Of a stretch of DNA of 64,000 bases, positions 1-52,600 are shown one piece after another; position 1 is the stretch's first letter, and each line of letters begins with the position of its first letter. Made by a program: the position numbers and the translations under genes. Location: NCBI GenBank assembly GCA_045837725.1, contig JBEWZL010000265.1:1-64000 (forward strand). The letters run 5' to 3'. Source of the stretch: Vermamoeba vermiformis (taxonomy: Eukaryota). A model generated the notes under the pieces. That model was given only the letters and a program-made list of their open reading frames with translations, was not told the DNA's origin and ran no database searches.

Positions 1-154
1 AGGAGTATTTGAGTCTATAGAACTCGTCAAGATCTTGATTACTCGTCAAGAAGTTTTCCTGATCTTCGTTTGCACTGCTCACGCGCGTTTCCGCCGCCAG
101 CTAAAAAAATTAACAATGCCCGTATGAGATCAGTTTAGTAACATGCTTGGTCAT
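1..154 (-). CDS. Possible 5' part of a gene running off the left edge (unknown product)
   Basis: Minus-strand acceptor TTTTTTAG near 101 followed by an open frame LAAETRVSSANEDQENFLTSNQDLDEFYRLKYS; possible ATG near 154. No recognisable motif. Confidence 0.3.
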
Positions 155-12158: not shown

Positions 12159-13788
12159 CTATTCATCGTCATCAGACGAATCGTCCTTATTATTGTTTTT
12201 GCCTCCAAAAATCTTGGAGAAAAATGATTTCTTTTCTTTTTTATCCTCGACTGTGCGCTCATCTTCGTACGTCTTAATAATGGTCTTCATCTTATCGTTC
12301 GCGCGTTGCAACTCCAACTCCAACTGACGAACTTTTTCCTCCAAAGCAGTGACCTCGGGGCTCTTAGTCTCATTATTGTTATTATTAGCGTCATCTTTCT
12401 TCAAGAAATGTTGCTCCATTCGCATGATAACGACGTCGCGCATAAATTTCATGTCTTCGTCTGCGTATTTGTGTACAAGGCCAATAGCTACGATTCTCAT
12501 ATTAAGACCCTTTGGTATAAAATAGACAGAATCAATGACTTACCCGTGTCATTGAGCTCTAAAATGATATATTTGCCAGTCTTTCTGTCGTGCACGAAAT
12601 CTAAACCGAGAATATCGAGACCTCCGAATAACTTTGCGCACTGTACACGAGTCAGTAAATTATTCGTATTGCACGGTAATAACAAACGTTTAAAAGCACT
12701 TACTTCGTCAGCCCACATTTTGAATTCATCAGTCAACTCGTGATCTTCGATGATCGACTGATTGCCGACATTGCCTTTCCAGTTCGCACTCATACGCTTA
12801 AATACTCTATAGTGGGACCTATATACTACAGTTAATATAAGAACGCAATAGGAGAAGAAATAACGCGTACCCGATCTTCTGAACACGACCGTCCCAATCC
12901 CAATCAATGAACGGTTCGGCCGTGGAATAATCGCCGTGCAAGGCAATAATTGAACGCACGTCCATGAGTTCATTTTGATTGTTAACTTTCATCTTGCCGT
13001 AGCCCGCGTGACAATGGCCCACCTTGAAAGTTCAAGTCAGACGCGCTTATTACGGCCGTGCAAATAAGATTTAAAGCTTACCTTAACTACGACTGGAAAA
13101 TCAGGAGTGAACAACAAGTCTCTAAATGAAGAGTAATAGTTCTGTTCGATCAGCGGGAATTTATCTTTGCCGAGGCGCTTTTGAATTGACGCAAGTGCAC
13201 CATAAACAAGAGGCCTTTCGAGGCACATATAAGCTACGAATAAATTAGATTAAAATAAGCAAAATTAATAAATTTTAAATGAAATTAAATCTTACCCGAT
13301 AAAGTGGAATTGACACCGGGAATGTTCGCGTGCATCAGCGCGTAGAGTCTTTGATTAAGAATTAGATACGATGATATATTGCTTTCTTATAATTTTCTTA
13401 CAAGTTTTTGCTGTTTTGGCCGTGAATGGACCATGTCACACTTCGCAAAAGCAAGAAGTCAATCTGAAGCAAAATTTAAAATTGGTAAACGAACATAGTA
13501 TATTGATTCTAACATATATTTCGCGTTATTTAGATGTAATAGAAATTATAAAATTAACGTTTAGCTTACCTTGACCGTTCTATCGTTCATCTGGGAAGTA
13601 CCAGGGTGAGGTTTATCGGCCTTCTTTATAGAAACAATTACACCGTCCTTAGAATATGATACCAAGCTGCAATCAGGCCATTCGCACTGTTCTATGACGA
13701 TTTTCTCATCGCCAAGCATCGCGCCCTCGAAGATCGAGTACCAATTCAAATTACCTTGGCATTCGATTACTAAGACAGTTTTGACCAT
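12159..13788 (-). CDS. Synapsin-like ATP-grasp protein with C-terminal coiled coil
   Basis: FPLIEQNYY, FPVVVKVGHCHAGYGKMKV, STAEPFID...RVQKIG, NWKGNVG, FGGLDILGLD, YIILELND. Confidence 0.85.
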
Positions 13789-15564: not shown

Positions 15565-18500
15565 TTATGTGAACAAACGAACGGTCGAATCTGATCCTGA
15601 GCTGAAGATCCAAGGCTGAGTAGGATGGAACATAATGTTCAAAACACCCAAATCATCAACGATCTGATGGCCCTTTAAGATCTTCAAGGGCACAATCATC
15701 GGGTTCTGCAACAAATCGTTGTAGACCATGCCGTGGAAGACGTGAATGTTGCCGTCGTCAGAGCACGAGGCGAACAAGGGGAATTGATGGTGGTAGGCAA
15801 CGGATCTGACTGCCAACTGGTGATATCTCAACACCTTGTAGGGCTTGACACCAAAGTCGAGGTCAAACCAAACAACGCGCTTGTCGTATGATCCAATAAT
15901 AACGTTATCACCAGCAGGGTGGATGTCCATTGACGAGATCCACTGCACGTTCGAAACCAACTTCTTGAACAACTGTTGCTTAGCCAAGTTGTAGACACGA
16001 ATGTGCTTTTGAGTGGCAACGAAGAAGAAAGGCTTGGAAGGGTGGAACTTGACCGTCTCGACGCGACCCTTGTTCTTCTTGAAGGGGCTTTGAGTCTGTC
16101 GTTTGCTAATGCTGTGAATCAACACGGCACTGTTGTTCGCGTCCGGGCTAACAGTGGCCAAGTAGTCACCTTTGTGGTGCCACGTGAGCTTCTTGAGTGC
16201 GTTCTTGGACTTGTATCGGATGCGAAGTCTGTAGCCCTTGTCGTCCCAATCGTCAACGTTAGGCTTCCTCCATTCAACCAATGATTGAACTAAACGATTA
16301 TTAGCACGAGCCATTTCACGCAAAACGGTAATTATGAACTTACTAGCTTCAGTGTTGCTGCTTTCGTCGGACAAGAACAACTTGGTAGTGTTAGCGGTTT
16401 GAGTCTCGTTGCCGAAGCCAGGTTCCACGACGAAAAGCTCGTCTTCGCTGTTATTTAAAGTGTTACTATTTGGCACGTATCAAAAGGCTGCGCAAAAACA
16501 TAAAAAGAATTTCAATACAAGGTTGTTTTATCAGAGAAAGTTAGAATCATAATTTATCATTCTAAGAAAGGCAGTATACTTTGATCATCATTAAAAACAA
16601 CCAGTGTATCGATTTGGATAGAAGTTAATCAATAGCAGTCAAGGAACGCATCCGATCGAGTTTTGGATGTGCTCCTTCTTGACGAAAAAAAATATTGTGG
16701 GATAGCACCCTCGACTGTCACCATTCGTTAAATATCGATAATATAGTAAAATTGAGCGTCAAGGATGCCTCAGTGTTCAGATGTGCTTGGAAAGTTAAAA
16801 AAGAACGCTACTTACGTTGCGACGGCAAAGCAGTGTAAATTAACATTAGGATTCCATTCAACCACGAGAACAACGTCGGGGAAAGTCCATTGTCGCATGC
16901 AACGGCCAGTTGAGACCTCCCAAAGACGAACTGTTTTGTCGTCGGATCCTGTTCACCAATGGACATTAGTACGCATTCAAAAATGGAGCCACTAGAATGT
17001 GCTCGATCGATTAAATATAAAATTGACGTATTTCTACTTACCAGTGATCAACCACTGACCAGACGGATCGACCGAAATAGATCGAACACGATCAGTGTGA
17101 CCCAAGTATTGAACAGATTCTTGTGTAGGGAAGGGTTTCAACTCTTCAGGACGAGGCAACTTAGGCACAAGAGATTGAGGATCGATTTCGAGCTTCTTTC
17201 GCTTGCTTCGGGTCGCCAAGTAAAGATCCAACAAACGATTGAAACGCTCGACCTGCAAGCGTGAGTAAGCAGGAACGTGACGTAATCGGTCGTATCTATA
17301 ATAGTTATATCAAAATTAGTATATACCTAGGATGTGCTGGGGTGTGCTATCAATACTCACTTTTGTGGCACGAAGTCTTGGTGTCGCTCTTCGGGATCGC
17401 TGTTTTTCCATTGGTCGAGTTCATTATCGTCGAATAAGTATTCAGATGGAGGGTTATATGACTCAGCATGACCTATAATGCAAAAATAAGTAAAAGCACT
17501 GACGCACACTCGCCGCAGATCCGTGGATCATGCGTGATCCGTAAAAACTGTATTTCGCAGTAAATAATACCTGGAAGTTTTTGTTTAGGAGCCGGCAATA
17601 TTTCTCGTCGCTTTTGGTCGTTAATATTGTCGTCCCAAATAAGGAAGAGTTGTGGCTCTTTTTTCTCTTCTTTCTTGTCCTTGTCTACCTTGATAATACC
17701 CTTCTTAATAGCCCAAGACAAGTATCGAATCTACATAACATGTTAATAAGATTGCACGCGATGGATTCTATCGAGGTAAGGCATTGCGTTGAAATCTGGA
17801 CTTACTCTCTTGGCTTCCCATTTGGAGGGAATAAAGTTATCTTTTCGTGCAGGCTTGTTAGATACGGGGTGAATATGATCGTCGTGGTCGGTCAATCTGA
17901 TAAACCAGTTCTCAGGCTCGTAGCGATCCGGAGCTACACCTCGTCGGATTCGCTTGATCATTTCCATTTCACGGTCTGAAATAAATACACGTCGACCCAA
18001 ACGCTCGTCGTAAAGTGTTCTCCTGCAATATTGTAACCGTTAGTAATCGTTAAAAAAAGTCATAGTTTGATTAAATGAGTGCACGATCCAGGATGCACAC
18101 GAAATTGTTTGTGGCTACTTAGAGCTGTGTAAAAATATTTAACATACCAAGCAGTAGGATCTTCGTTGGTTTCAACGAATTGATCGATTTTGTCAATGCC
18201 AACGCGTGGCTTAGCGATCTTCTTGCCTTCTAGATCGTATCCGACGTGGTCGTATTCGTCGTACCACTCTAATGGAACGTTTCCGATAGTGCTCAACGTG
18301 CGCTACAAGAAAAATGGTGTTAGAATCCGAACGAAGGCTAGTCAGATCTGATGCGAAATCTTCGATCGCGATCTTGGATGTCAAAAATGGAGGAAATAAA
18401 TTGGCTGCACGCCCCAAAAATATGCAATATTTTTCTTGCGTCACTTACTTCATTTTCTGAATCCTCACTGTCATAATTCATTGAGCTGTGACTGGATGCG

Positions 18501-19565: not shown

Positions 19566-22500
19566 ATGAAGATACACGTGACTTCGTCTTCTCTGCAGAA
19601 GCTAGAGACTATTCTATTAGAAAAGTACAGCTACAAACGATTAGAAGAGAAAGTACATAAAATATTTCCCAAGAAGAAGGTAACGCGATCCACCGTAGAT
19701 CATGGCTGGTTTTACTAAGCTCTTCAGGTTGCTGCGATCCGAGACCTTGAAGGAAATAATGTACGTGACCTCCCTGAAGATGTAGTAAAGAAAAAGGAAG
19801 AGTGGTACGCCGTGGTCTTGTTGGAGAACGAGTCGTTAGGTACGGTTAACCATGCACATTTTTACGCGCTGAAAGTTGATTGTGCGGAGCGAATGAAACA
19901 CAATAACTTATCGTTCATTGCTAGATGCGGCTCCCGTTGTCAAGTTTAGCGAAGACTTCGTTCCTGATCCGAGTAAGTCGTGCTGTACGTCTTGTCATTC
20001 TCGTTGCTTACCTCGATCTCAGAAATGCTCGTCGACGGAGGCGTCACCGAGTACGACTTCGTGACGGCCCTGGCGGAGATTATCGATAACTCTATTGAAG
20101 CTATGCTCGAGACAGACGAGACACCAGCCTTGTCAATCAAGTACGAGGGCGACGCGCAAAAAAATTACATTATCATTCGCGACAACGGCAAAGGCATGCT
20201 TCGTGATGATGTTATTAAGTGGGGCACGCTAGGTTTGAATAGTAAACAGTAAGTTCGTTATCTTCATCGTGTCACGGCGCTAACTTTGATCAAAGGCGCG
20301 GTGTGAGCATGATCGGTTGTCCTTACCCTCTGTATTTGTGCGGGCAATTCTCTCGATTTGGTGTTGGCTCTAAGAACGCTGCTTTCTTCTTGGGCGATAA
20401 TGTTACAGTTGAGTCGAAGAGCAAGAACTCAAGAAGCATTCACAGCGTGTCTTTTCAGCGCGTAAGTAGCACAATTAGTTATTACGACGGTACTAAGTCC
20501 CAATAGGCCCTTCTAGAAACTAGACGAAAAAGTGCCAAAGAAGATTGGTGGAAGGACGACGTCACAACTACTCCAGCACCTGTCGATAAGCAGGATCTAC
20601 ATTATACCGAAACAACTATTACAACGTTGAAGCCACAATTCTTAAGTATTTTACCAGACACAATGGATCGTAAGTTGGTTGGACTTATTTTATTCAATTC
20701 CAATGTTGACTGTATCATTTCATTTCAGAATATCGTGCACGTCTCGAAGAAATCTATCACTATTATGTTTTTGGTCCAAATGGTGCTCACCCAGCGTCAC
20801 TTGAGAAACTTCATTTCACACGAGTTGATATTCGATTGTCAGAGCGCAATTCAAAGTTCATTCAAGAGCTCGCTAACTGTATGAAGTCAAACCCTGTAAA
20901 AGAGAACTATTTCTTCCTCACTCCAGCAAATGGTATGTTATCATATCTTATCTGTACGATCAACTGACTCTGGATTCAAGGAATGGAGGTGCTTGACAAC
21001 TTAAGCGACGAAGAGAAAGAAACTTTTATGCAACACCACATTGCTATTTTGCCAGGAGAGAAAAAACAAAAAATGACCAAGACATCATTTGCACCACTTA
21101 TGAAGGCACAGAAGACTTTCAAAACAATTGCTGGCTCCACCATCACAGTGGTTGTTGGTGAAGCAGTAGAGCTTGGAAAGCGATTTCACACTACAACAAA
21201 CAAAATCAATTTGTTTGCAGCCTTTGGAGAGCCTGCAAAATATGTTTCGCCAGCTACTCCTAAGAAAAATGACAAAAAGATTGAAGAAGAACTTTGGTAT
21301 ATTCCAATCTCTGAGCCACTCTATTGCCCTGCTTATCAACCTGTTGAAATGCACTTAATGCAAGTTAACATAACACGCTCTCCTAGTCCCTGGGATCGCT
21401 TTGGAATGTACCAGCTGAAAAGTCAAGCGTAAGTCTCCGTTCTTTGGTAAAATTTTACTAATAGCCACTAGTGAGCTTCGCTTTGAAGTGCCTATTGAAG
21501 CTGATGTCCCAGTGAACTACACTCAAGCTGATGTTAGAGAAAATGACAAAGTTCGTTGCACGTTCCGCTTTCACATCATGTACTTCCCACTACAAGAGAG
21601 CGAAGGAAGTGATGTACGCCTTGAAACAAATCCTGATTACTATGATGATCAAGGTGCCCTGCTCAATCCTCCTACAACATACTGGTTTTGGAATGGTCGG
21701 TTGATTCCAAGAGCAGCACTTGATTTTTGGGCCATATTCAAACAAAAGAAAGACCAGAAAAACATTCCAAAGGAGTGCTTCTCAGTTAGAACGCGCATCT
21801 TTGCATTCATTGACTCTTCTATTGGTGTTGCTAAGAACAAGGTCTATTTGGACTTGGAGTCACCTCTCCTTAAAGAGCTTATTGCCAGCAATAATAAGAG
21901 GAGGAATGTCGAAGACGTGCAGAAGTTTATGGAGTACTGTCACATGCGTTATGACCTGGAAGCTGAATGGAGTGGGCCTGGAGTTCTCAATGAAAACAAA
22001 ATCTACTACTCAAAAGTGATGATGCAAGGCAAGGCAATTGAGGTAATTGTTATCCATAAACATAAATTTGTTCTAATTGGTTTCTAGAAAGGAACAAAGG
22101 TCAAAGTAATGAATCCCAAAAAATTTGGCTGGGTTGAAGCATTGTTTGAAGATGCAGAAAGCAACAGAAGACCAAAGATGGCAAGAATAATTCCATGGGC
22201 TGAAAACCGTGATGAAAACTCAAAACTTGCTCGTACTGAATATTTGGAAGTTCTGCTGTCAAAAATCAGCATTCTCACTCAAGAACAGTGGGAGGTCGAG
22301 GTTGAAAAGGGCCGTGAACAATTTGGAAAGGAGCTTGTGTTTTCTGATATTGTCAAAGGCAGTCAAGCAGAGCATCCTGTTTGCTTAGTCTGTCTATGCC
22401 ATGTGAAAAAACGTGAGCTCAAGTGCAAATCTTGTAAGGCTCACTTTCACCGCTCTTGCTACACAAAACCACAAAAAGAAACAGAAGCTTACAAAGAGAG

Positions 22501-25500
22501 CTTGGATGATATTGAGAATGCTAAGTAAGGATATTAATCAATAACAAAAGTTTGTGTTAACTTTTTACAGGTTGTGGTGCTGTGATGACTGCATTGAGAA
22601 GGAAGACATACAAGAATATTTCAAAACAGCCCGTTGTGGACACACTTTCAAGGAGATGGCAGTTACTTTGCTTGACGATAAATCCAAGCCAAAAGCAAGT
22701 CAGAATGAGGTTGTTTGGCAAATTTTGGATCCTGCTGGCCATGAACACCGTTCATACCAGGATGTCAAGCAGTACAAAAATACGCAAGAGTATCGTGGCA
22801 AATATTATATCCGAACAATAATGTTCCCAACTCCAGGTACAAATTCCCTCTGGCGCCCACATGATTAGTAACCTTCAATCTTTAGGCATTTGGACAATGA
22901 AGGCCTACCTAAAGAACTGCCCATCCATTCAAGGAATTGCTTCTATCAAGGTGGTTTCAGGATACCCTGTTAAGTTCCATGAATCCAAAATCACAAACAG
23001 TGCATGCAGAATTGGAGAAGAGATTCATAATATAAGCCTTGTTTGTGTTGACAAAGCTGTAAGTTCTTGACATGAGTTTGGTTCAGCTCTAACAAATTTC
23101 CAGGATCATCCTGTCAGATTCCTACCAAATCACCCTCCTACCAATTACACTCTCAAAGTGTTGAATTCCCCTCATATCAGTGTGGAGCCTGGCCACTCAT
23201 TGACAGTGAATGAAGAAGGAGAGCTGATTCTTAGTGGTGTTATTTTAGAGGGCAGCATTGAGGACTCTCAATCAGTCATTCTCTCATGTTCATTAGCAGA
23301 GGAAAATGAGGCCATGACTTGCTTAATTCGTCTCACATTGCAAGCTGGCCCACCTTCAACAATGGAAACAGACTTTAAGCAAGGATTAGTAATTGATAAT
23401 TACTCATTTTTGCCCAAGTTCACTGTCCATGTCTATGATGAATATGGCAATCACATCAACAATGAAGAAGAATATCATGTGCAAATTGGACTTCCAAACC
23501 CTGTGGAGTTTTTGGTGCAAGATGGCATAGCTGAAATTGACTTAGAGCAGAAGGATGTGCGCATAGAATGTTCTTTCAAGGGTAAATATGATTATGTTAG
23601 CTCAAACAATTTCTCACACATGTGTAGACATGGATGCCAGTGAGGAAATGAAGATTGAAGTCAAACTTTTAAAGACAAAGAAACCACGTGGACTCCTTGA
23701 AGTTGAAGAGGTTGAGCCAATTGAATGCCTGTTCAGTGTGAGGCCTTCAAAGAAACCTCATGCCCTCAAGCTTTTCACTCAAGATGGAGAGCAATTGGTT
23801 GCAAAAGGTGCTGTCATAGCTGGCTCTGGACTGAAGCTTGTTGGACAAGCAGAGGAGCTTGTGCAACTTTTTGGCCAGTTTGTCAACGAAAGCCAAATGA
23901 TCATTGCTTTAGATGAAGTTCCAGCAGCTACTTTCAACTTCTCCAAGCACTTTGCCTTCACACATATGACCTTTGATCAGCTGCAAAAGCAATGCAAAAC
24001 TCCTAGTGAATGGAAGCAAAAGAACATGTTTTTGTTGCCTACTCTTGCTTTGCCATCAAGTACCTTTGATAAAACCAAAGGTGAAATTCAAGTCATGTGT
24101 GGCAAGAAGTTGACTGTGCAACTTGAATTCAAAGTTCTTGCAGGCAAGTCCAAGATGCTTCACTTGTAAATTACTGACACATTTCTCAGCTCCTCCCAGT
24201 CAATTTGAAGTCAAACTTCCTCCTCACCTACAGTGCAGCAAACAATTTACAGTGGCATTAATTTTGAAGGATAAGTTTGCAAACATAGTTGCTCCCAATG
24301 ACCTCTCTGGGTATGTAAAGTAATGGAGATGGGGAATTTCTGGCTAACATATATTAGTGAATTCAAAGATGAGCTGAAAAGCAGCTTGAGCTTTGTTTTT
24401 GGAGAGGGATTCCAATATGAACTTACTCCCACCATTGACTTTAACCCTGACCATGTTGTACTTGCAAACATGCAAATTGATGTTGTTGGCAGACACCAAG
24501 GTTTGATTAAACTCAATCTTGGTGAATTGCAAATGCAACAAGCTGTGATGTTAGATGTTGGGCATGGTATGACTACACGTCATTTTTGATTTCCTTACTA
24601 ATCATATTTGTAGGTGCACCTGCAAGTTTACAAATCAATGATGATAGACCCCTTAGTGGAAGGCCAGATGGGGTTTGTCAGATTAAAGCAACTCTAGTTG
24701 ATGACCAAGGCAATGTTTGTGATAAGTTCCAAGACATTGACCTTGAAATTTCTTCAGTTTGCTTTGTCACCAAAAAATTTAAAACCAAACTGATCAAAGG
24801 AGTGGCGCACATTGATGTGCCAATTAAGAAGATTAAATATGGCAACTACCAAGTAATTTTTGAGGCACAGATTGGCTCTAGTGAAAAGATCTCCACCCAA
24901 GTTGATCTTGAACTAGAGAAGTCTAATGCTGTCCAAAAGCTTGAGTTAGTGAGACCTATTGAAGTTATTCCTGCTGGATCAACTTGGAGATTCCATGTAA
25001 GCTTGAAGCTATACACATCACTATCTTCTAACGTATTCTAGATTGGAGTTGTAACTGAAGATGAGCAAGCACTTCAAAGAGACACTTACAGCTTTAAAGT
25101 TGTAATTTCAAATCCAGCTTTGGTGGGATCTGATATTGAGAACATTCTGAACATCACTCGAGAAGAAGATAACAAATTTGTTATTGATGTAAGTTAATCC
25201 CTACCTGCACCTTGAGCTGATTGTACTTCAGATGGACAAACTTGAACGTGCTGGCCAATACACTATGCATGTTATTTGGGATGAGCAAAGACTTGAACTG
25301 TAAGAATTGACCAAATCATTGCCCATCTAACATTGAACGACAGACAAACCAACATTCCTCCAAAGATGACAATTCCAATTGTTGTTAAACCCTTGGCAGC
25401 AACAGCCCTCAGACTTAGTTGCCATTGTGCCACTCCTTCGTTGCACCAAGACAACATATTGTATGCTTTTGTGCAATCATTCTAGGCTAATTTTTTGTTA

Positions 25501-27546
25501 TGCAGCTTCCGACCAGTCAGCAACAAGTCTGATTTCAGAGAACGCTCATTGTGCAAAAACCTGGAATTGGCACCTGTAGATATTTATGGAAACTTGAGTG
25601 AGGAGGTGCTTGACAATATTGTTGGTACGAACTGATTGCAAATTTCATTTTCAACCAGATTCGTTAATATTTTGTTTACAGCATTACTGCAGCCAATCTC
25701 TGAATTGAGCTCTGATGCAGTTAAACCAGAAGTGATGTATCAAACAATAGTGCCGAAGAGGGGCTCTTATTTTGTGCACAATTTGAGCATTAAAGCCGAT
25801 TCTGGAAGCGGAACTGTAAGAATAACCTTCAAACAATTTTATTTTACAACATTCTAACCTGACTAAATTTAGGCCGAATATCAAATTCATTTTGAGGCCA
25901 GAACAGCGGCAGGCAAAGTAATTCGCAGCATTTTCCGTCAATTTAAATTTTCAGATGGTAAGAAATATTTTCATTTTTATTCAGCTGCCATTGCTAATCA
26001 ATTAAATTAGATGCTGGCAAAACGAAGAATGAACGAGCATTATCAGAAATTTTGCAAAAAGTGCAGCGTATTTCAAATGAGCGAGCTGAAATTGAACGAC
26101 GCATTAGTGCCAGCCGCGAAGAGTTAACTCTGTTAGAAGGAAGTATTAGTGGCACACTGAATATTTTTGGTGTTTCGTTGAACGAATACACTCCCGATTG
26201 GGTCGATCAAACGCGACAGAGATTGCACCTTGAAAAGTACGTAAATTTTTAATTTCTAATTACAATTATTAATATTAATTTTATTTTATTTCTAGACGAG
26301 ATCTTGCACGCGAATTACGCATTGCAGAGCCATCGTTCCCTTCAAACGAAGATTCTTACGTTAACAAAGTACGAGCCCTCGTCATTGAACATCAGCCTAA
26401 GAACCCACACGAAAAGCCATTAATTTTTGGCCTTGGTTTGGACATTATTTGTTTGCCGAAAGACGAGCGAATTGCACGAGGAGTATTGGCTGCAATCTCG
26501 CCGGGAGATTTGAAGCTGATTATATTGCGATCAAAAGAAGCCGAGCCAATTATTGAAAAGTCGTTCAATTGGTACAGATCCATTACCGTAGATCAAGCGG
26601 AGACTTATCATTATGGCAACCCTAATCCTAATGATAATCGAATTCCTGGTACGTTCTACAACTTTATTAAATTATCCTGGTTATTTCTTAATTTAATTAT
26701 TTCTTAGATAATCAAATCTTGCCGAAGTGCTGCAGAAACGGTACCGTTAATCCAAAGAATTACGGATTTATTGGATTTTTGGTCAATTTAATCGAGGTAA
26801 TTTTTTAATGTAAATTAAAATTAGACGACATTGAAATTAATTTTTACTTTTATTAGCTACGTCCTCAACATATTCATTTGCGAACTTCCGTATTTTGGAG
26901 TGTTTTCAAGACGAAAATGATCTTCGAATCGTACGCTCAAGCGAGAGAATTCCGCTCGCAAGTGTTACAAAACGTATGTAATGCATTATTATTGTTGTAT
27001 ATACTCTGACATTGTTTATAGCGAGACTCGTGCCCGTACATTCAATGCTTGGATGGCATTCATATTGAAGCTTCTGGCGTGAAATCAACGTCGAATCAAA
27101 ATCGTGCTTGGAGACTCGGAGATTTGCCGATTGAATTTAGCAGCCATCCGTTGGCTTTGGCACTGGGACGAAAATTCAAAGGTAATTACGAATTATAATG
27201 GCCTTATTGATCGAAAACTAATTCCAACGGTTTTGTTATTTGTAGCGTTGAAAGAATTGCCAGCTCAAATGGAACGCTTTACGGTTATTAAAGACAATTA
27301 TCACGCGAGTGAAGCTACGCTGCAAGAATTTGATGCCACTAACGGTCCTAAAATCAACGAACTCCAAAAGGTAATAGTACTATTAAAAACGATTTCATTA
27401 ACGGCTCGTCGCTGACTATTTATTTGTAGCAAAAAGAAGAAATTGAGAGTCGTATGAATCAAACCTCGAGAAAAAGAACGCGTGATAGCACCGGAAATAA
27501 CGAACGCGATGATGAACACGATAGACCGCGAAAGAAAGTTCGTTAA
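19566..27546 (+). CDS. SMCHD1/GMI1-like protein: GHKL ATPase, transducer, PHD finger, long beta-rich linker, coiled coil and SMC hinge; start may lie further upstream (~19231)
   Basis: ALAEIIDNS, DNGKGM, SRFGVGSKNAAFFLG, IYHYYVFGPNG, FWNGRLIP; hinge motifs GFIGFLVNLIE, LRTSVFWSVF, CLDG; basic C-terminal NLS-like tail; many short introns. Confidence 0.85.
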
Positions 27547-27712: not shown

Positions 27713-30700
27713 TTACAATTCATCGCCTTCGTAATATCCATCAACGATGACCTTCCGCTCAATTTTCTTGCCAGATTTGGGTGTGTTATTACTCGCATTG
27801 CTATTATAAGTAATGTTGCCGTGCGGTGATACCAGCGAGGCTTCTTGAACGGATCCAAAATTCAAATTCAGTGCCGGGACTGTAAAGCTGATGCTGTCGC
27901 TATTTTTAGCTTCATTCGCTGGGCTATGTTGAGCTGAAGATAGCGAGAGATATTTAATCTTGGCCATCAGTTCGTTAACGTCGGTGGATGTGGGCTTCGG
28001 CAGACCAGCGTGCTGATGATACTGCGCTAGTAGCGATGGCACGATTTCATTGACCATATTAGTGTCTTTAAGGCCTTCATTGCCCAGTGCATCGCGGACA
28101 AAGTCTAACACTGGATCTGGTTTCTTGGCTGCGTTGGATGGTGGATGCGCGAATCCGACGTTTGCACTCGATTGCTTCATCTTATTTACAGGGGAATCAG
28201 TTTCGAAACCTTGATACGAATGTTCAGGCATAGTAACACCTAGGCAAAAAATTGTTATTATCAACAAAAAAAAAGAAAAAATGTTCGCCTTGGATCGAAT
28301 CCGTTACAAAAAGAATTTCAGCAACTGATGTAATAGAAATATGCGCTCGTTGTTGGAACTTAAAAAGCAAAAAAAGAAAAGAGCACAACACCTCCGATTC
28401 CCAGGTAGTCTCCTACCCCAGTACTAAGAAGGCCTGAACAAGCTTAACTTCGCTGATCGGACGGGAAGCGGTGCATTCTTGTTAGTGTGGTCGTGCCCGA
28501 GACCAAAAGCAATTTGGTACGCAGGTCACTCCTTACTAAGCCAAGAATAGAAGCCACCAAGATCCCGATCGACCAGTACAAAATAAAATTTTAAATTTGT
28601 GTAAGGCCTTACCTCCAACTCTAGGCGAGTCAAAATTGAGCATAGATGATGCACTTGAGCCTACAGATCTGCGCAGCTCTTGTGCCACTGGCGGACTGTT
28701 GTGGATCTGCCTCGGTGAGGTCATAACAACCGGCAGCCATTGCTTAGTTGTACGAATGGGCTCTTTGAACTCAGAGAACGCTTTGATGCACTCGCTGATC
28801 GTAGAGAATTTTTTGACCTTGGTGTTCTTTTCTTCAGGAATAAAATACAAGTTCGCTGAAGATCGCCAAATCTGACAAAATTATTAGCGACTTAATTTCT
28901 GCTAATATTGTATGACATACCTTAGCATGTTCTAATTGTCCTTGCGATGTATTGAAGCTAGCAGTTAAAATGTTGCCGTCTGAAGTTGGATCGCGCAACA
29001 AATACGAGCCCGGCGGTTTGTTACGCAGAATATTCCAAACTTCTTTTACGCTAATCTTACCGAAGTAAGCGTGACTTACTCCAGTAGTACTATCGAATAG
29101 CGACTCGATCTAAGCATGGAATAATTAAAATCGAAATTTTTCCTTTTATGGAAATCGAACTTTAAGCACTTACCACCGAGAGCAGCATATTCCAAGAACC
29201 AAATTGATTTAAGAACCGTAGAAACTCCGTCAAGGTAAGTTCACCATTGACGGTATAACTCTCTAATATGAGCGAGATGTTGTACCAACACGCCAAAATG
29301 TTAGGGGTCTGCGGCGCTGCTTGTTTTTGGTATTCGATGAAATTCTTCAGTTTAATCTTACGGCCGCTAGTAAATATCTAAAATAATTATATTAGTACGG
29401 CAATCTTGCGAAAATGATCGAAAAAAAACATTGGAGCGGATGTAAGATGCGTACCTTTGCTTCGTCTTGCCTCAATTCATCCGAGCTTAATAACTTCATT
29501 AACATCTCTTTGATTTGTTCCTTGCCATCAACACTCTTCAACACATTGTTCAACCACGCTTCATTAACTTCCTTCAAGGTCATCTTGACGAGCATGGACT
29601 TTGGCAGCACCATCGAACTGTTTCGTCGCACATTCGCAACTTCGTTGACATTGCCGACCTCTAACCAGTATTTTCGCGTACGCTATAATTAGAGAAAGTG
29701 TTAGTCCGTGTAAAGGTTCGAAAGATCTCGGATCGCACGTGCTTACCTTTATCGGATCCACGGTCTCGTTAAAGAATCCATAGCTTTCAAATTCATTATG
29801 AACTTCGCCTTCGCCTTTTCCCCACGATTTTTCGGCTTCGGGAATTGAAACAAGGACTAAAAATAATACAGCACGTCAATAACTCAAATTAATTTCAATT
29901 AATTTCGGCTGACGTCATTATATTCAAATTTTAACTCCGATGCAATATTAAATAATTAGCTAGCTAGCTATAGCTAGAAATTGATATAAAAGTATTCCTA
30001 CAGGATCCGAATAATTTTCAGAGAAAGAATCTTCACTAGAATTCCATTAGGTGATACTTACTAGCATTGACCGTGTTGCCTTGACTATTCTTATGCTCAC
30101 TCCACTTAAATCCGTTGAGCTTCATATCGCCGCTGAACTTCTCCGTGTCGCTGCTGAACTTGTAAACTGCATCCACAAAATGACTGAACTTAATATGCCC
30201 GCTGCTGCTCATAGGTGGTGGTACGGCATTGCTATATCCGCTAGTGTTGCTATATCCTGAGCTTCTTAAGCTGTCTGATGTCATCGTAAGCGATACTGTA
30301 CTAACGTTAATTGGATTTGCAAAGGAATCAGGAGGACTATTACGACTATTATGGTATCCGCTTGCAGCTGGAGCTGTATTAATGTTCGATGTGCGCTTAG
30401 GATCGGTTATATATCGCGTAGGGCTCGCTGGATAATCTTGCGGCTCTTCCGCATCCGAGTTGTACATGTAACTCGCTGAATCTCCTTCAGAAGCTAGACT
30501 TGAGACCGATGCATTGAGCGGCTGTTGCGCTGAATCGTTGGCATATTTCATTGTATTGATTGGAGGCGAGCTCTGCATATTATTTGAATTTTCATTGTTG
30601 TTGACAGGGACAAAAGTGGATTCGGCAAAATAAGCTGGTCTAACATTAGTGTTGAGCGGAAATAATTGCGGGAGTGGCCCGGTACTTGGTTGAATAACTG

Positions 30701-31851: not shown

Positions 31852-34134
31852 ATGCTCGGTAGTTTGATTTTAATAGCAATCGTGTTATATATCGCCCGAT
31901 GGATTCAATTATCGAGGCATATTCCGACCGTGCCTGGCGAATTGAACCCACCATTCATCGGCATGTTTAGATCTTTCAGTTTCTTAACAAATCCGCCCAA
32001 ATTTACAGCAGAACAAATTCAAAAGTATGGAAGAATATTCAAGATTAATAGCATCATCAATTTCATGGTCATGGCGACCGAACCAAATGCCATCTCTCAA
32101 ATATTTAAGGTAAGTCGAAAATTCATCAATAATATTCGTCTATATTATTTTCATATACGACTCGTTAATATTATTTTCGTAGAATCAATTTTAATTCCTA
32201 TTTTTCAGATTGATAACAAGTCAGTCGTTATCGCGTGGCCTGACAACATTACCACTTTGCTTGGACCGAAGAGCATAGGCGTATTATCGAAAGATATTCA
32301 TGCTCGTAAGAGAAAGCTGCTTAGTCAAGCCTTCACACCGAGGTAAGACGCAAGATCCCGCATCTTGTAAATTTCCTTTTTTAGTTAAATTTTTGTTGTA
32401 TTTCATTGCTGAGCCATATTTGCTCGTGATAATAATATTCAATTCTCTAATATTACTAAAATATTTTAATATAGCGCTATGGAATCTTATTGCCCTAGAG
32501 TTTTTTCAATCATGAATTCATTTATCGACAACTGGATTCGACAAGGAGAAGTCCCGAATATGTTCGAACAAGTCAAGCTATTGACATTCGATATGGCCAT
32601 TCAATTACTACTCGGAGTTAATGTATCAGACGACACTAAACAAAAGATCTGCAACGGTAAGAAATACGCAGCAGGATCCACCTTAATTCTCGAGCATTAT
32701 TCCACTTAGACTAATGCAGCAATTAATATTAACCTTTGTTTTTATTTAATCGCAATATTAACCTCCTACTTACTCTATAGAATTTATCGAATGGCTGAAA
32801 GGTTTTCGCGTAATCATTATGAAGCCTTATCCAGGCACTCAAATGGCCAAATCAATGAAAGCCAGAGAACGAATTCAAGAGGTACGTTAATATATACTTA
32901 TTATTCTATACATATATTATTTGTACGAACAAGTTCGAACCAAAAACAAAAAAAAAAATTCGGATCTTTTAAGTAGCGGTCAAATTTTCAGACTTACTAT
33001 AATTATGGTTATAAATATGTATATATGCCGTGGTTCTATGAACTGATGGACCGTTGTATTTATTAGGAAGCAGAGAAGATTATTCTCAAGTATCAGAAAG
33101 AACAACCAGAAATTAAATCTACTCTCGGCATATTAATGGACTCGACTGACGATGAGGGCAATAAATTGACGATGGATGAATTGAAAGATCAAATACTCAT
33201 CATTTTATTTGCTGGTACGTCAGATCCAAAAAAATCAAATTTTTTATCTTACATTCTCTCGAATATTTGATCGCAATCGAATTATATACGAACATAATTA
33301 TAATATATTATTATTATTATATGAATTTAAATATCTAAATAAGGCTTTGAAGTACTAATTTGAGTTATTTGTTTGTCAGGCCACGATACGACTAGCGCAT
33401 CCATTGGTTGGATCATGTTAACGTTGCATGAATTCCCAGAAATTAGAAAGAAATTAGAAGACGAGCTAGAAGCGACATTGAAGCAAAAATCTATCGAACA
33501 GATAACTGCTGCGGATCTAAAGTCGCTGAACTATCTCAATGCGTTCTTCAAAGAGATTATGCGCCGTTATTCGCCGATATCATTTGGATTTAGAAAGGCC
33601 GTAGAACCAGTGCAATTAAACGTAAGAAATAGCTCTTTTTCTAGAAATATATCGAATACTGAGTACTTATTCCTTTTTAGGAAACAATGGAGATTCCAGT
33701 CGGAGCAGGATTAACGTACAATATTCTCGGAGTGCATAGAGACGATAAGATCTATCCTGATGCGATGAAGTTTTCGCCAGAACGATTTTTAGATCCGAAC
33801 AACAGTCCTTCTGCCAGCGAGTGGATCCCGTTTGGCGGTGGTCCTCATATCTGCTTAGGTGCGAAAATAACATTATTATACTTTAATTTAACATATAATT
33901 ACCTGTTGTTGCTTCTTAACTCTATCGCCTAAATTTTTCAGTGCTACATCCGCTGAGTATTTCGATTTTAATTAATTAATTTTAATAGGCATGGAGCTCG
34001 CCAAGCTCGAGTTAAAAGCATTTACTACGGCTATGCTGAAGAGACGAGTCTATATTGAGCCAGGTCAAGTCGATATTTCGCTTTCACCTATTTACCGACC
34101 TCAAGCTTTCACTGCTAAAGTCTCTGTTAAATAA
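31852..34134 (+). CDS. Cytochrome P450
   Basis: N-terminal TM, I-helix FAGHDTT, KEIMR (ExxR), FSPERF, PFGGGPHICLG heme-binding motif. Confidence 0.95.
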
Positions 34135-38835: not shown

Positions 38836-41355
38836 CTAGTTTACAGCTCCAACGGACTGCATTTCTTTTTCGAGCATTCGCTTTCTAATCAAAACTCCCG
38901 CCGTAATCGCAGCTCCTGCCGCAACAACACACGCGACTATAATTACTGCTAATTGCCAGTCTAACAGTTGTCCAGTATTATCTCCTATTAAATCGGCCGT
39001 TGGGGTCTCGGTATTGCATGTTTGTTTCAACGAAAATAAAATTGAAAGCAAACCAGGACCGTTCTTCTGATCAGTTTGTACGATGGCGCATGGAACTACA
39101 AAATAATCCAATTAATACAGGAAATGGATGTGAAAACTAATTACATACATTGGCCGGGATTAGAGATGGAAATAATTCCGAAGTCGTTTGCGGTGTCGCA
39201 GAGAGGACTGTACGTAACAACAGTTCGATTCAATACGCCATTGTTCTCCAGCTCTTCTATCTCTTCGGGAGTTAGCGTGACTACCAACGACGATTGATTT
39301 TTGATATCCACACATCCGTATACACTGATAGTAGTTCCGTTGACGACTAACAGGCCACTATCGGTCACTTGCAAGTCTCCGTAAATGATCACTGGATTGT
39401 TAACAGTCGTGGTTGAATTGACGGTCAAGCTGCCGTTCACAACCCACACAGAGTTGCCATCAATAACCGTGCATTCGGCAAGCTCAGCGGGCTTTGGAAA
39501 CGTGCAATCTAGCGATGATATTAGTACGACTGTTAGCACGAGACAGAACGCTACGCGTGGACTTACAGCTATCACACGTGTCTCCAGAATAGCCCGCGTT
39601 ACATGTGCATTCGTTCGGGCCAGTACAACTTCCACCTTGACTGTTGCACGCAGATGAGCAATAGAACGTATCGCACAAATCGCCTTGCCAGCCTGCCAAA
39701 CAATTGCATTCACCGGCGACTTGGCAAGTGCCGTATTGACATCCCTGCTTGCAAATTGCTTTTGAAACGTTAGCAAGTCAGAGAGGCACAATTCCGAGTA
39801 CTTACTCTCATTGCAATCCTTTCCAGACCACCCTGCATTGCAATTACATTCTCCGGGCAAGTTGCACGTAGCTCCTGCCGTATTGCACGTGGGAGAACAT
39901 ACAGCTGGAAGAGACGTCAGTCAAGCTCGAGCTTCGAGTTCAACTTCATACCTGCATCACACAAAGAGCCTTGCCATCCTGTGTTACAATCGCAGCCTCC
40001 AGGGTTCGAACAGCCTCCATTCGTGCATCCAGTAGCGCATATCGGTACATCGCAAAGTGTGCCAGACCAACCAGGAGAGCATACGCACTCGCCAGGGTTC
40101 GAACAGCCTCCATTCTTGCATCCAGTAGCGCATATCGGTACATCGCAAAGTGCGCCAGACCATCCAGAATTGCATATGCATTGGCCCGGGCTCGAACAGC
40201 CTCCGTTTTTGCATCCAGCAGCGCATATTGGCACAGTGCAAAGTGTGCCAGACCAGCCAGAAGAGCATACGCAGTCACCAGGCTGCGAACAGCCTCCATT
40301 CACGCATCCGGTGGCACAAATCGCTAATGTATTCTTTTTGTTAAACACTAGTGTATTATGACTAATCTTAAAGATACGTACCTGAGCCACAATTGGCGCC
40401 TGTCCAGCCGTCAGAACAGCTGCAAAACATGCTGGTGCCAATATCGCGGCAAGCGCCTGATGAAGTGGCGCAAGCAGGTCCGCAAGAGGCTGTAAAGTAT
40501 TGTTAGAAACGCTAAAGTAGGTGAAGATTGTCTCCTTCTTGCCTCCAGTGCAGGTCACGCCGATCGAACTGCGAATTGTGGTTCCATCGGTTTCGAGTAT
40601 GCTGAAAAAAAGGAATAAGTACTGTGTCATAGTTATTATGCATGCTTACCTAACATCGCGCACGAAAAACGTTCTAGGTCCGATATTTCCTGGTGCGACG
40701 ATGCACGAGAAAGCCAGAACAAGTTGCCTTGCAAAGACGAATTAGCACCTCTATTATTACTCCACTAATGGTTACTCACCTTCCCGCATATTGGTAGGGG
40801 ATAGAGAATTTTCTTGTGTACCATTTCTTATACGTGTAGAAGGGAATAAGCTGAAATTCAGATCAGTTACGTATTTTTTTTGTACCAAAATATTGTAGCT
40901 TGCAAAAATGGTAATTATATTATATTATATATTGGACACTGTCTTACGGATGTTGGATCATTCGCGAGACCGTTCTGGTCTAGAACACCTGCATCTTGCA
41001 AGAAAACATAAGTACCGCCTCCACTACTATCATAGCCAATGTCAACAGTGCATTTAACATCAGTCTCCTCGTGCCACATTGAATATTGAAAATAATTGCT
41101 AGAGCCCGCAGTTGCTGAGATTGTAAATCCCTTTCTAATTGTAGAGAGCGCTTGCCCGCAATATACAGTATTAATGTCGACCTGCGTCCTTATGGGGTCA
41201 CCTCCAATAATCATAGTATTTGATGGGCAACTTTGAGTCGTTGAGATTGGAGAATTGAAATAAAACGGGTCGCATCCGAATCCGCTTGCAAATCCGGTAA
41301 ACAGTACTACCAAGACCGCATATAATAGTACGGTGCTGTATTGTTCTTCCTTCAT
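38836..41355 (-). CDS. EGF-repeat type I membrane protein
   Basis: Signal peptide, multiple CxxGCxNGxCxxPxxCxCxxGWxGxxC repeats, TM segment IIVACVVAAGAAITAGVLI followed by RKR. Confidence 0.85.
39955..40322. repeat. About four coding tandem repeats of 93 bp (31-aa EGF units)
   Basis: GAACAGCCTCC and GCGCATAT recur with a 93-bp period. Confidence 0.85.
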
Positions 41356-49659: not shown

Positions 49660-52600
49660 ATGACGAGCACACGTCTATTAAGCTACATCATAGGCATACT
49701 ATGCATTGCCGCTACGGTGATTTGTACCGGTGAAGCTGGTAAGTTTCTGAAACTGATCCGGATTTAATACTAGTAGAATATCTCAACAATCACTTCTTTG
49801 ATCAAAACATTAATTAATACCTTGTAATCTTTTAGGACAAGATTCGCTATTAAATGTTTTCGTTGTTCCTCATTCGCACGATGATGTTGGCTGGGTCAAA
49901 ACTATAGAAGTATTTATAATTAAATTATGCCCCATAAATTATAATTTTAATCATGTTATTATTGAGGATTATTACGAAAGTGAAGTGCGCTTCATTTTAT
50001 CCACAACTGTTGACACTTTAATGCAAGCTCCCAATCGCAGGTTTATCCAAGTAGAACAGTACGTTGATACTTTATGAAATCTTGTTTAATTGCGTACAAA
50101 GGGGCTTCTTCACGCTGTGGTGGAACGACGAAAGAACGACTGACCAGCAGCGCCAGAATCTCAAGTTCCTCGTAAAAAACAAACAATGGGAATTTGTTAT
50201 TGGTACGATTGAAAGGCAGGTGTATCAGCAAACTCTTTTGACACGTGCATTTAAGGTGGCTGGGCGATGCAAGACGAGGCGTGCTCGACTTACAGTGCTG
50301 ATATTGATCAGGTGAGCTCGTCCATCGACGTTTTAATAACACGGCACTAAACTGACACCCGAATAGATGACTGAAGGGCACCAGTTCTTGCTAGACACCT
50401 TTGGCGTGACACCAAGATTAGGCTGGCAAATCGATCCATTCGGAGCTTCAAGCGTAACACCAACATTGTTCGCAATGATGGGCTTTGATGGTCACGTAAT
50501 CCAAAGAATTAACTGGCAAACAAAGGTATGGTAATTAATCGTCTGAACGACTGTGTTTCATTTTTTGCTGTGCGACGGACAACACAAGGCGCTGTAGTTA
50601 AGTGGTAAAATTCTTGCTTAGGGTGCAAGAGGCCCCGGTTCGATTCCGGGCAGCGCCCCACTAATTTTTTGCCTTTTGTCCTCCGATGCAAGTTCTTTGA
50701 TGGCTTTGCCTAGAGTGCCCTCTGTAGTGTGATTTTTACGTTCAATATTAATTTACCCGTACCCAGAAAGCGATGATGCAAAACAAGACTATGGAATTCG
50801 TTTGGCAAGGTTCGCCGAGTTTAAAGCAAAAGACTCAGATTTGGACGCACTTGTTGGACTACAACTACTGCGCGCCAATGTTACAGTAAGTATTTCTTTG
50901 GTCAATGACAATTTGGACTAATCTGATCCGCTCCGTAGAGGCTTCAATTGGGAAGGCAACCCTTTGAGCAATCCGTGGATAACCAACAATAACGTACACA
51001 ACCGTAGCATGGAGTTTGCTCGCCTTATTAAGGTATTGGTACATTCTACTTGGTCAGATCTGACCGTCTTAAAATCGCAGGAAAAAACCAACTGGTACAA
51101 GTCAAAGAACATTCTGATTCCTTGGGGCTGCGACTTTGCTTTCCAGGACTCGCTCGTTCAATTCATGAATATGGACAAGATCATCGACTACATTCATTCA
51201 AACCCGAACATCTTTGGCATGAACATCAAGTACGCCTTGTTGAGCGAGTTCTTTGACGCTGTAGCAAATGACACTACGACCACTTGGCCCGTGCTTGGTG
51301 CCGTTGATTTCTTCCCTTACGACGACAACGATAACAGTTGGTGGACTGTAAGTTCGTTCATGAATAACTGACTGGTATCTAATGACGTAAAAGGGCTACT
51401 ACACTTCTCGCAATCAATTGAAGGGTCTTGTGCGACACAGTGAACATCTTTTGCGCACATCAGACACGTTGTTCACAGTGACCCAAGCCAAGGCACCCAT
51501 GGACAGTGCCGCTGCCTACAAACAAATTGATGTGTTGCGACAAGCTGAAGCTGCAGTGCAACATCACGATGGTGTCTCGGGCACGGAGAAGGACTTTGTC
51601 GTCGACGACTATTCAGCTCGTTTGTTCAACGGTGGAAATCAAGCTATGAACGTGAGTCACCAGATCCGCACGGCTTCGTTATTCATCACTAACACGTACT
51701 AAAGGTTACGTTGACTGCTCTTGGTTTATTAGTTAACTCCACGAACCCCGCTAAGTTCACCAACAACACTGACTTGCTCTTGAACCTCAGAGTTGGCAGG
51801 GTAAGTCAGTTTATCCTCCTAATATTCCGCAACTAACCTTCACAGACTGTCTCTTTTGTCGCCTACAACAATCTTGCTTGGAGTCGCACGGCTGTCATTC
51901 GATTGCCGTTGAACAGAGTTGACATCACTGTTCTTGACAGCAACAACAACGTTGTTAATTTCCAAGTATGTAGTTGAAGGAGTCGTATTAGTCCATACTA
52001 ATGTACTGCAGATCAACAACGCCTCGTCTGACACACCTAATGGCAAGTACGCATTATTCGTGCAAGTTCAACTGCCTGCTCTCGGCTACAACACGTACTT
52101 TATCAAGGTGACTGGCACTGTGCCCAACAACAACATTGCCGTCATCACAACCCCAACCAACGGTGTCATCATTGAGAATCCGTTCTTGCGTGTCAGCTTC
52201 GACTCCAACACGAACCTGATCACCCAAATTATCAACAAGAAGTCCTCGATTAACATTGAGGCTCAACAACAGGTACGCAGCCAATAGACTTACGACAAAA
52301 TCTAATTAACATTGCAGACTCTTGCCTACACGAGCTATTCAAGCGGTGGTCAGAACTCGGGCGCGTACATCTTCCGTCCAACAGGCCCTGCTTCGCCCAT
52401 CAACGGCAACGTTGCGCCTCGCCTCACAGTTCAAACTGGACCTTTACTCAGTGAAGTGGTGCAAGTGTTCAGCGATGTCATTAATCAGGGCCCTTCATAC
52501 TTTACTCTGATCACAAGGTCCGCAAATTAATTCTTAAAGTAACCGTCTAACAATCGTGTCTTCAGATTATACAACGTTGATGAAATCTCCGTCGGCAACT

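Follow-up and report, generated by a model that had tools for sequence, protein, structure and literature searches.

A probable full-length SMCHD1-family ATPase with a putative PHD finger encoded in Vermamoeba vermiformis

The window analysed here, a stretch of 64,000 nucleotides, comprises positions 1 to 64,000 of contig JBEWZL010000265.1 from the Vermamoeba vermiformis assembly GCA_045837725.1. Its forward strand carries at 19566-27546 a gene that, with a probability of about 0.85 in our estimate, encodes one full-length non-canonical SMC protein of the SMCHD1/GMI1 family. A complete protein of this type, with an N-terminal GHKL ATPase and a C-terminal SMC hinge, had been proposed for the locus from the bare sequence (the original prediction), in agreement with what we find: the GHKL domain and the S5 transducer are recovered by Pfam and the hinge by hidden Markov models (HMMs), in one open frame. 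The prediction overlooked the two features that set this copy apart, namely a putative PHD finger and an insert in the ATPase module. An SMCHD1-family member in a protist is not new in itself; the new element is a divergent protist subclade with both features, consisting of the protein described here and two homologues, P0002 and P0012. SMCHD1 has medical ties with the type 2 form of facioscapulohumeral muscular dystrophy (FSHD2), arhinia, X-inactivation and imprinting, and the questions asked about it include its targeting and the work that its ATPase cycle performs on chromatin.

The gene and its transcripts

On the forward strand, 19566-27546 is pieced together from short open frames spread over the three phases, a mosaic typical of intron-rich eukaryotic genes. 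For exon chaining, a dynamic-programming script weighed codon usage (as log-odds), scores for GT/GC-AG splice sites and a prior on intron length; the junctions were then corrected by hand. In the final model, 29 introns of 43-85 nt separate 30 exons, and the product has 2163 residues, with one frame open through all exons and neither frameshift nor in-frame stop across 6.5 kb of coding sequence (Table 1). Both ends given in the original prediction, an ATG at 19566 and a stop at 27546, were reached independently by the chaining. The introns, with donors of the consensus form GTAAGT and many CTAAC-like branch sites, comprise 28 of the GT-AG type and one inferred GC-AG intron (24144-24189, + strand, 46 nt, donor GCAAGT), the sole way of normal length to hold the frame between exons 14 and 15. 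A nearby GT donor at the same boundary was rejected, as it would yield an intron of 24 nt in the wrong phase.

Evidence of RNA type comes from the contigs of run X8, which match the gene at 97-99% identity but lack its introns and are hence spliced, and which support 12 of the 29 introns through ten joints and two loose ends. Nine joints coincide exactly with model introns once the stated shift of the cut is applied (19840-19924, 19973-20022, 20670-20728, 25461-25505, 25625-25681, 26237-26295, 26649-26707, 26797-26856 and 27182-27245), and the tenth corresponds to intron 20462-20506 with one odd letter. The loose ends hold the exon sequence 3' of introns 22525-22570 and 26974-27021. Depth from X8 is found in 22 of 30 bins, from exon 2 through the last exon. 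Three automatic junctions were discarded: 19882-19924 was refuted by the X8 contigs and gave way to 19840-19924, and 25621-25692 and 27104-27143 were dropped by hand, with both replacements later confirmed. We conclude that the locus is a genuine, intact and intron-rich gene for an SMCHD1-family protein of approximately 2160 residues.

The ATPase and hinge halves very likely share one transcript. A check by RNA had been proposed in the original prediction, and it succeeded in part, in that spliced contigs extend from exon 2 to exon 30 within an open frame, whereas no read or contig spans the gene. Separate transcripts for the two halves, which the prediction had also considered, are not what we observe, given the 30-exon open frame and the presence of S5 through hinge on one Trinity transcript in P0002.

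Domain architecture of the predicted protein

The assigned features are collected in Table 1. Pfam was run on 15 raw open reading frame (ORF) pieces at E ≤ 0.1 and on 17 further exon pieces at E ≤ 5. The region preceding the GHKL domain aligns with its counterpart in vertebrate and protist homologues, and local blastp alignments begin at model residues 43-56. HATPase_c_3 is matched on 19977-20252 (E 9.1e-10, 39.1 bits, cut-off 25) and on 20246-20506 (E 2.9e-05, 24.6 bits, cut-off 25), and SMCHD1_S5 (PF22899) on 21419-22087 (E 1.3e-12, 48.3 bits, cut-off 27), where it is the sole family at E ≤ 0.1. When compared to 177,635 distinct PDB sequences, the S5 exon matches only human SMCHD1 (6mw7, E 0.0021, over FWNGRLIP), and the GHKL exon alone finds generic weak GHKL matches (Topo VI-B, GRP94 and HtpG, E 0.03-1). 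In a ten-row alignment, the Glu and Asn of motif I, DNGxGM, FGVGxK, IYHYY..G.NG, FWNGRL and the NK of the lysine region occupy columns conserved with vertebrate SMCHD1. The GHKL motifs, IYHYYVFGPNG and FWNGRLIP, from which the original prediction had started, were all located on the + strand within the reading frame of a single spliced gene, and on columns conserved in the family.

Between the GHKL domain and the transducer, approximately 200 residues are inserted that are gapped in eight of nine aligned homologues and filled by P0012 only. In local blastp of residues 296-495 against 28 proteins, P0002 (E 1.4e-06) and P0012 (E 0.096) were matched, with no other below 0.3; no Pfam family was found in the insert.

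Table 1. Features of the SMCHD1-like gene, in window coordinates
Feature	Residues	Position	Strand	Basis or remark
N-terminal ubiquitin-like (UBL) region	1-90	19566-19968	+	By position only
GHKL (Bergerat-fold) ATPase	92-330	19972-20889	+	Pfam HATPase_c_3, conserved motifs
Motif I ALAEIIDNSIEA		20067-20102	+	Catalytic Glu and Mg-binding Asn
Motif II DNGKGM		20175-20198	+	
Motif III FGVGSKN		within 20348-20395	+	
Family motif IYHYYVFGPNG		20752-20784	+	
Subclade-specific insert	~296-495	20785-21428	+	Alignment gap, local blastp; holds intron 20933-20980
SMCHD1-type S5 transducer	494-684	21472-22042	+	PF22899; PDB 6mw7
WFWNGRLIP		21683-21709	+	In S5 transducer
Conserved lysine region GVAKNKVYL		21824-21850	+	In S5 transducer
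BAH-like region	685-780	22088-22375	+	Local alignments; equals human SMCHD1 BAH 571-688 by position
PHD-type zinc finger, C4HC3	783-837	22382-22592	+	Pattern and alignment; split by intron 22525-22570
Long middle region, probable Ig-like array	~840-1765	22599-25947	+	Collinearity, ESM-Atlas leads
Helical heptad-like arm before hinge	~1770-1880	26013-26404	+	Read from sequence; collinear with pre-hinge of P0013, P0016 and P0017
SMC-hinge domain	~1885-2075	26417-27156	+	Homologue-seeded HMMs; over four exons
Hinge motif GFIGFLVNLIE		26764-26796	+	
Hinge motif LRTSVFWSVF		26878-26907	+	
Hinge motif CLDG		27046-27057	+	
Post-hinge helical arm and basic C-terminal tail		27181-27543	+	Sequence only; RKRTRD 27469-27486, RPRKKVR 27523-27543
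Exons 1-10		19566-19679, 19728-19839, 19925-19972, 20023-20248, 20296-20461, 20507-20669, 20729-20932, 20981-21428, 21472-22042, 22088-22524	+	
Exons 11-20		22571-22836, 22886-23058, 23104-23581, 23628-24143, 24190-24310, 24358-24566, 24614-24996, 25042-25188, 25232-25299, 25344-25460	+	
Exons 21-30		25506-25624, 25682-25815, 25873-25957, 26011-26236, 26296-26648, 26708-26796, 26857-26973, 27022-27181, 27246-27370, 27430-27546	+	

Local alignments with P0008, P0013 and P0015 run through the BAH-like region that follows the transducer, where Pfam finds no BAH family. The putative PHD finger has the W-x-C preceding Cys7, and an X8 loose end supports the intron that splits it. Residue by residue it can be aligned with the PHD finger of P0002, which exceeds both Pfam cut-offs (PHD 36.1 bits, cut-off 24; PHD_2 36.5 bits, cut-off 28); the C4HC3 pattern is also present in P0001, and P0012 appears similar by eye. 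With residues 685-780 placed by alignment at the BAH region and a stretch of Ig-like appearance starting near residue 845, the PHD finger sits between the BAH-like and the first Ig-like domain. The long middle region, a beta-rich linker in the original prediction, probably constitutes an array of Ig-like domains, as suggested by its nearest ESM-Atlas clusters (NUP210 Ig, Invasin_D3/Big_1 and Ig_SMCHD1_6th; weak, scores 0.84-0.90) and by the precomputed Ig_SMCHD1 Pfam families of the homologues. Pfam gave no match in the middle region, the copy searched being one without the Ig_SMCHD1 models. AlphaFold2 run on single sequences returned no usable fold for the exons 22088-22522 (predicted local distance difference test score, pLDDT, 44.5) and 23630-24142 (pLDDT 32.8).

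For the hinge, an HMM was seeded with four homologues (P0015, P0016, P0017 and P0020) whose hinge regions are recognised by Pfam SMC_hinge. It scores 56.8 bits on the model (independent E-value 1.9e-16), whereas 2000 shuffled versions of the last 463 residues reach 7.3 bits at most, and an HMM from seven seeds scores 88.1 bits, with an eight-row alignment spanning both hinge halves. Local blastp aligns the hinge with that of P0015 from Naegleria lovaniensis at 40% identity over 90 residues (E 2.4e-15). GFIGFLVNLIE, LRTSVFWSVF and CLDG, singled out already in the original prediction, are present in frame and fall on the best-conserved hinge columns, and all four introns inside or beside the hinge are confirmed by X8 contigs. 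Helical segments of heptad-like appearance, the presumed coiled coils, lie on both sides of the hinge, as read from the sequence. The basic C-terminal tail looks like a nuclear localisation signal.

Homologues, alternative readings and neighbourhood

With the S5 exon as query, phmmer picked out 18 proteins at E ≤ 0.001 from among 1.84 billion representatives. The 14 with at least 590 residues were scanned with Pfam, leaving out four fragments of 107-270 residues, and contained SMCHD1_S5 in 13 cases, HATPase_c_3 in 11, SMC_hinge in three and PHD in one. P0006, the match without SMCHD1_S5, was rejected as a low-complexity false hit. P0016 is of the vertebrate type, as judged from its matches to 6mw7 (E 1.3e-193) and 6n64 (E 2.4e-57). 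The closest relation over length is to P0002, a EukProt protein of 1879 residues without the GHKL part, whose ORF is marked complete and derives from a single Trinity transcript: residues 253-2059 of the spliced product are collinear with residues 5-1779 of P0002 (E 7e-90, against a small local database), from the insert through to the hinge. P0012 (909 residues) ends after the PHD finger, and P0001 (437 residues) is an unspliced fragment 70% identical to the protein of the window. P0002 and P0012, at 23-25% identity to the latter, have the ATPase insert in common with it and the PHD finger in the same place, the finger being shared also by P0001.

A maximum-likelihood tree of 26 ATPase modules from within the family, unrooted and without MORC or MutL outgroups, places the protein in a clade with P0002 and P0012 (support 99/97) apart from the vertebrate and heterolobosean clades. 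On removal of either P0002 or P0012 it joins the remaining partner (Shimodaira-Hasegawa-like approximate likelihood ratio test, SH-aLRT, 96). Because long branches meet in this tree, the shared PHD finger and insert, two rare changes in architecture, are the better argument for the subclade. Among the sequences examined, the one reported here is the only complete representative of the PHD subclade.

Metagenome scans were performed as well. The first gave 77 pattern matches, of which none was confirmed, and the second gave four loci, none belonging to the PHD subclade. Metagenome runs from water and aquifers showed shares of 0.40, 0.34 and 0.21, figures that carry no weight as to habitat. Three metagenome contigs, L002 (9-5012), L003 (1-6081) and L004 (3-6398), carry uninterrupted ORFs of 1668-2027 residues that match the ATPase profile, with E of approximately 1e-142 for L002 and L003 and, for L004 with its two ORFs, of 3e-96 and 2e-44. 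The hinge profile is matched as well by L003 and L004 (E approximately 1e-46); all three contigs have a GC content of 0.39-0.40 and are without introns or the PHD pattern. These are SMCHD1-family members with intron-poor genes.

Several observations weigh against the assignment of the locus to one functional, full-length SMCHD1-family gene, and they are best considered along with the alternatives they would favour. In the model, 17 of the 29 introns, including the GC-AG intron 24144-24189, have no RNA support and were placed by the unbroken frame, by consensus splice sites and by a length in the usual range; neither the X8 contigs nor the RNA-seq reads include one that bridges the whole gene, and five of the 12 bins of 23844-27251 are without X8 depth, including the continuous stretch 24128-25263. 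In addition, an X8 loose end at 22086 (record 2, low depth), with 16 letters before exon 10, differs from the end of exon 9, which could represent a contig-end error, divergence in a relative or an alternative upstream exon. The lack of a bridging molecule, the gap in depth and the inferred GC-AG intron would all be compatible with two adjacent genes, for a GHKL ATPase and a DMS3-like hinge protein, mis-joined by exon chaining. We consider this very unlikely, as the 30 exons keep one open frame and leave no credible place for an internal start or a terminator region, the collinearity with P0002 involves one transcript with an ORF flagged complete, and both halves align with full-length Naegleria, Willaertia and vertebrate proteins. 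On single exons the hinge itself escapes Pfam SMC_hinge up to E ≤ 5, and a PDB search with its largest exon (117 residues) gave no match at E ≤ 10, so that the hinge call rests on the homologue-built profiles; the hinge of P0002, too, misses Pfam at 1e-3. Together with the generic PDB matches of the GHKL exon alone, this might suggest a MORC- or MutL-type GHKL ATPase with a spurious C-terminal resemblance to SMC hinges, a grouping that the original prediction had named as one that would refute it. Such an identity is hardly credible, however, since the S5 exon lies above the SMCHD1_S5 cut-off, matches no other S5 family, whether of MORC or MutL, and has SMCHD1 as its sole PDB match, while the hinge profiles reach 57-88 bits compared to 7 for shuffles. 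Moreover, no MORC or MutL family was detected on the 15 ORF pieces (E ≤ 0.1), and zf-CW, the MORC S5, the DNA_mis_repair S5 of MutL and the MutL C-terminal domain were matched neither there nor on the 17 exon pieces (E ≤ 5).

The remaining objections concern the integrity of the protein and its middle part. At 2.57 changes per column, this protein has the longest branch of the tree, with a warning that long branches meet, and the insert of approximately 200 residues between the ATP-binding domain and the transducer could modify or disable the ATPase cycle. RNA-seq runs X19-X21, which bear the species label of the best-matching DNA run, yielded only 11, 16 and 19 reads, mostly 90-95% alike and mostly within 26684-27535, with the spliced 26973/27022 junction carried in diverged form. 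These reads are too few and too divergent to bear on whether the source strain expresses the gene, and suggest that the species label covers a diverged strain or sister species expressing an orthologue. A decaying or non-functional copy, be it a pseudogene or a catalytically dead scaffold, would fit the long branch, the interrupted ATPase module and the scarcity of reads in the three runs of the same label, but is highly improbable in view of the 6.5 kb of coding sequence free of frameshift or stop, the catalytic motifs, which are all intact, the P0001 relative, which retains the S5-to-PHD stretch at 70% identity, and the existence of properly spliced contigs. As to the middle part, the BAH-like and Ig-like assignments are positional or derive from weak leads, and exon 10 alone, which holds Cys1-Cys6 of the PHD finger, stays below the Pfam cut-offs (PHD_2 20.1 bits, cut-off 28, E 0.00043; PHD 16.1 bits, cut-off 24).

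Elsewhere in the window, a complete 5S rRNA gene is located approximately 830 bp downstream of the SMCHD1-like gene, at 28380-28498 on the - strand (Rfam RF00001, 104.7 bits, covering positions 1-120 of the 120 in the model), and stands alone, with no other rRNA genes adjacent in the window. A tRNA-Pro gene (anticodon AGG) is placed at 50588-50659 (+) by ARAGORN and Rfam. Protein-coding pieces include a synapsin-type ATP-grasp piece at 12500-12988 (-; E 1.8e-08), a WD40 propeller fragment at 15568-16479 (-; E 7.8e-23), a cytochrome P450 piece at 33364-33711 (+; E 4.3e-16) and, odd-looking for a microbial eukaryote, ORFs at 39144-40645 (-) rich in EGF repeats of the Delta/Jagged and teneurin types (EGF_DL_JAG, E 3.5e-25). 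Among the 22 flanking ORF pieces scanned, no chromatin or RNA interference genes were found.

Possible function and comparison with known systems

Based on the architecture and on what is reported for the mammalian proteins, we propose that the protein may operate as follows. By analogy with human and mouse SMCHD1, two chains would be held permanently together by the hinge, which would also bind nucleic acid. The N-terminal GHKL heads would then dimerise upon ATP binding and part after hydrolysis, catalysed by the Glu of motif I; in human SMCHD1 the corresponding residue E147 is reported to be essential and dimerisation to be ATP-driven (PMC7458401). Head dimerisation would further need the UBL domain, in agreement with reports that the N-terminal ubiquitin-like domain of SMCHD1 is required for it (PMC6620310, PMC8286825). 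DNA would be bound at the hinge and at the BAH/IGL-1 module, and the homodimer may thereby clamp, compact or silence chromatin. Finally, the PHD finger would read the histone H3 tail, providing built-in chromatin targeting where mammals use partner proteins. For the encoded protein we infer, rather than show, that it hydrolyses ATP, dimerises, binds DNA, reads histones, resides in the nucleus and acts in silencing or repair.

The position of the PHD finger deserves attention in this respect. In human SMCHD1 the BAH (571-688) and IGL-1 (688-819) domains that follow the transducer are described as jointly binding DNA and stimulating the ATPase (bioRxiv 10.64898/2026.02.05.704097). As the finger lies between the equivalents of these two domains, we propose that histone reading could be coupled to DNA-stimulated ATP hydrolysis. 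Extending this idea, the subclade may represent a distinct and old protist lineage of self-targeting SMCHD1-like proteins, in which the PHD finger, at its place between the BAH-like domain and the first Ig-like one, would read the state of the H3 tail, the ATPase would be stimulated only on nucleosomes in the right state, one chain would do the work of the mammalian partner proteins or of the CW finger of MORC3/4, and the insert would serve as an extra regulator of the ATPase gate. We put this forward tentatively, as a possibility on the unlikely side. If true, a histone-reader finger inside the DNA-sensing BAH/IGL-1 module would offer a simple model for coupling chromatin state to the ATPase.

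A role in repair, like that of plant GMI1, is the alternative to silencing. Arabidopsis GMI1, the only non-animal member with functional data, is tied to double-strand-break repair according to PMC5651269, and human SMCHD1 is reported to be recruited to damage sites (PMC4004971). In addition, the 22 flanking ORF pieces show no silencing machinery, only WD40, lipase, synapsin-like ATP-grasp, P450 and EGF repeats, although neighbouring genes are little informative in eukaryotes. A PHD finger beside a BAH-like domain is, on the other hand, typical of chromatin-state readers. Silencing and repair are inseparable by sequence, and we regard a GMI1-like repair function as conceivable but doubtful.

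When compared to vertebrate SMCHD1, whose ATPase module and hinge are represented by the structures 6MW7 and 6N64, the order is the same: a presumed UBL-like region, GHKL, S5, a region BAH-like by position, the long middle region, and an SMC hinge set between two helical arms. The overall size is likewise similar (2163 residues versus approximately 2000), and the catalytic Glu/Asn, DNGxGM, FGVGxK, IYHYY and FWNGRLIP are common to both. Identity in local alignments is 22-26%, however, and the vertebrate rows have neither the PHD finger nor the insert of approximately 200 residues. The hinge of the Vermamoeba protein is, in addition, too divergent for Pfam SMC_hinge on single exons. The heterolobosean homologues, annotated as hypothetical proteins of Naegleria lovaniensis (P0015), N. 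gruberi (P0023) and Willaertia magna (P0017), have 2227-2368 residues with HATPase_c_3, SMCHD1_S5 and SMC_hinge, and provide the best local matches to the GHKL domain (30-36% identity) and to the hinge; yet they too are without PHD finger and ATPase insert, and form a separate clade with shorter branches. To the extent that the description in PMC5651269 allows comparison, Arabidopsis GMI1 shares the arrangement of an N-terminal GHKL domain and a C-terminal SMC hinge with the protein reported here, whereas DMS3 consists of the hinge alone.

The fusion of GHKL, S5 and hinge was called a 'distinct ancient eukaryotic lineage' already in 2008 (Iyer et al., PMC2292703). The original prediction had taken the locus to imply an ancient or patchily retained system; the family assignment holds, with full-length Naegleria and Willaertia homologues in public databases, but the antiquity is not new. 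We found no published work on the function of SMCHD1 in protists or on a PHD-bearing form in a literature search that had subscription journals outside its reach. PMC11478834, retrieved as a candidate on SMCHD1, evolution and Dictyostelium, merely cites mouse Smchd1 and was set aside.

The nearest analogues of the proposed arrangement, from another family, are MORC3 and MORC4, described as chromatin ATPases of GHKL and S5 that carry an H3-tail-reading zinc finger of their own, of the CW type (PMC5651269, PMC2292703). They differ from the protein of the window in their MORC-type S5, in having CW instead of PHD, and in their C-terminal coiled coils, with no SMC hinge. The PHD subclade, in turn, combines its finger with the SMCHD1-type transducer and hinge, and would add a second, divergent protist lineage to the history of the SMCHD1 family.

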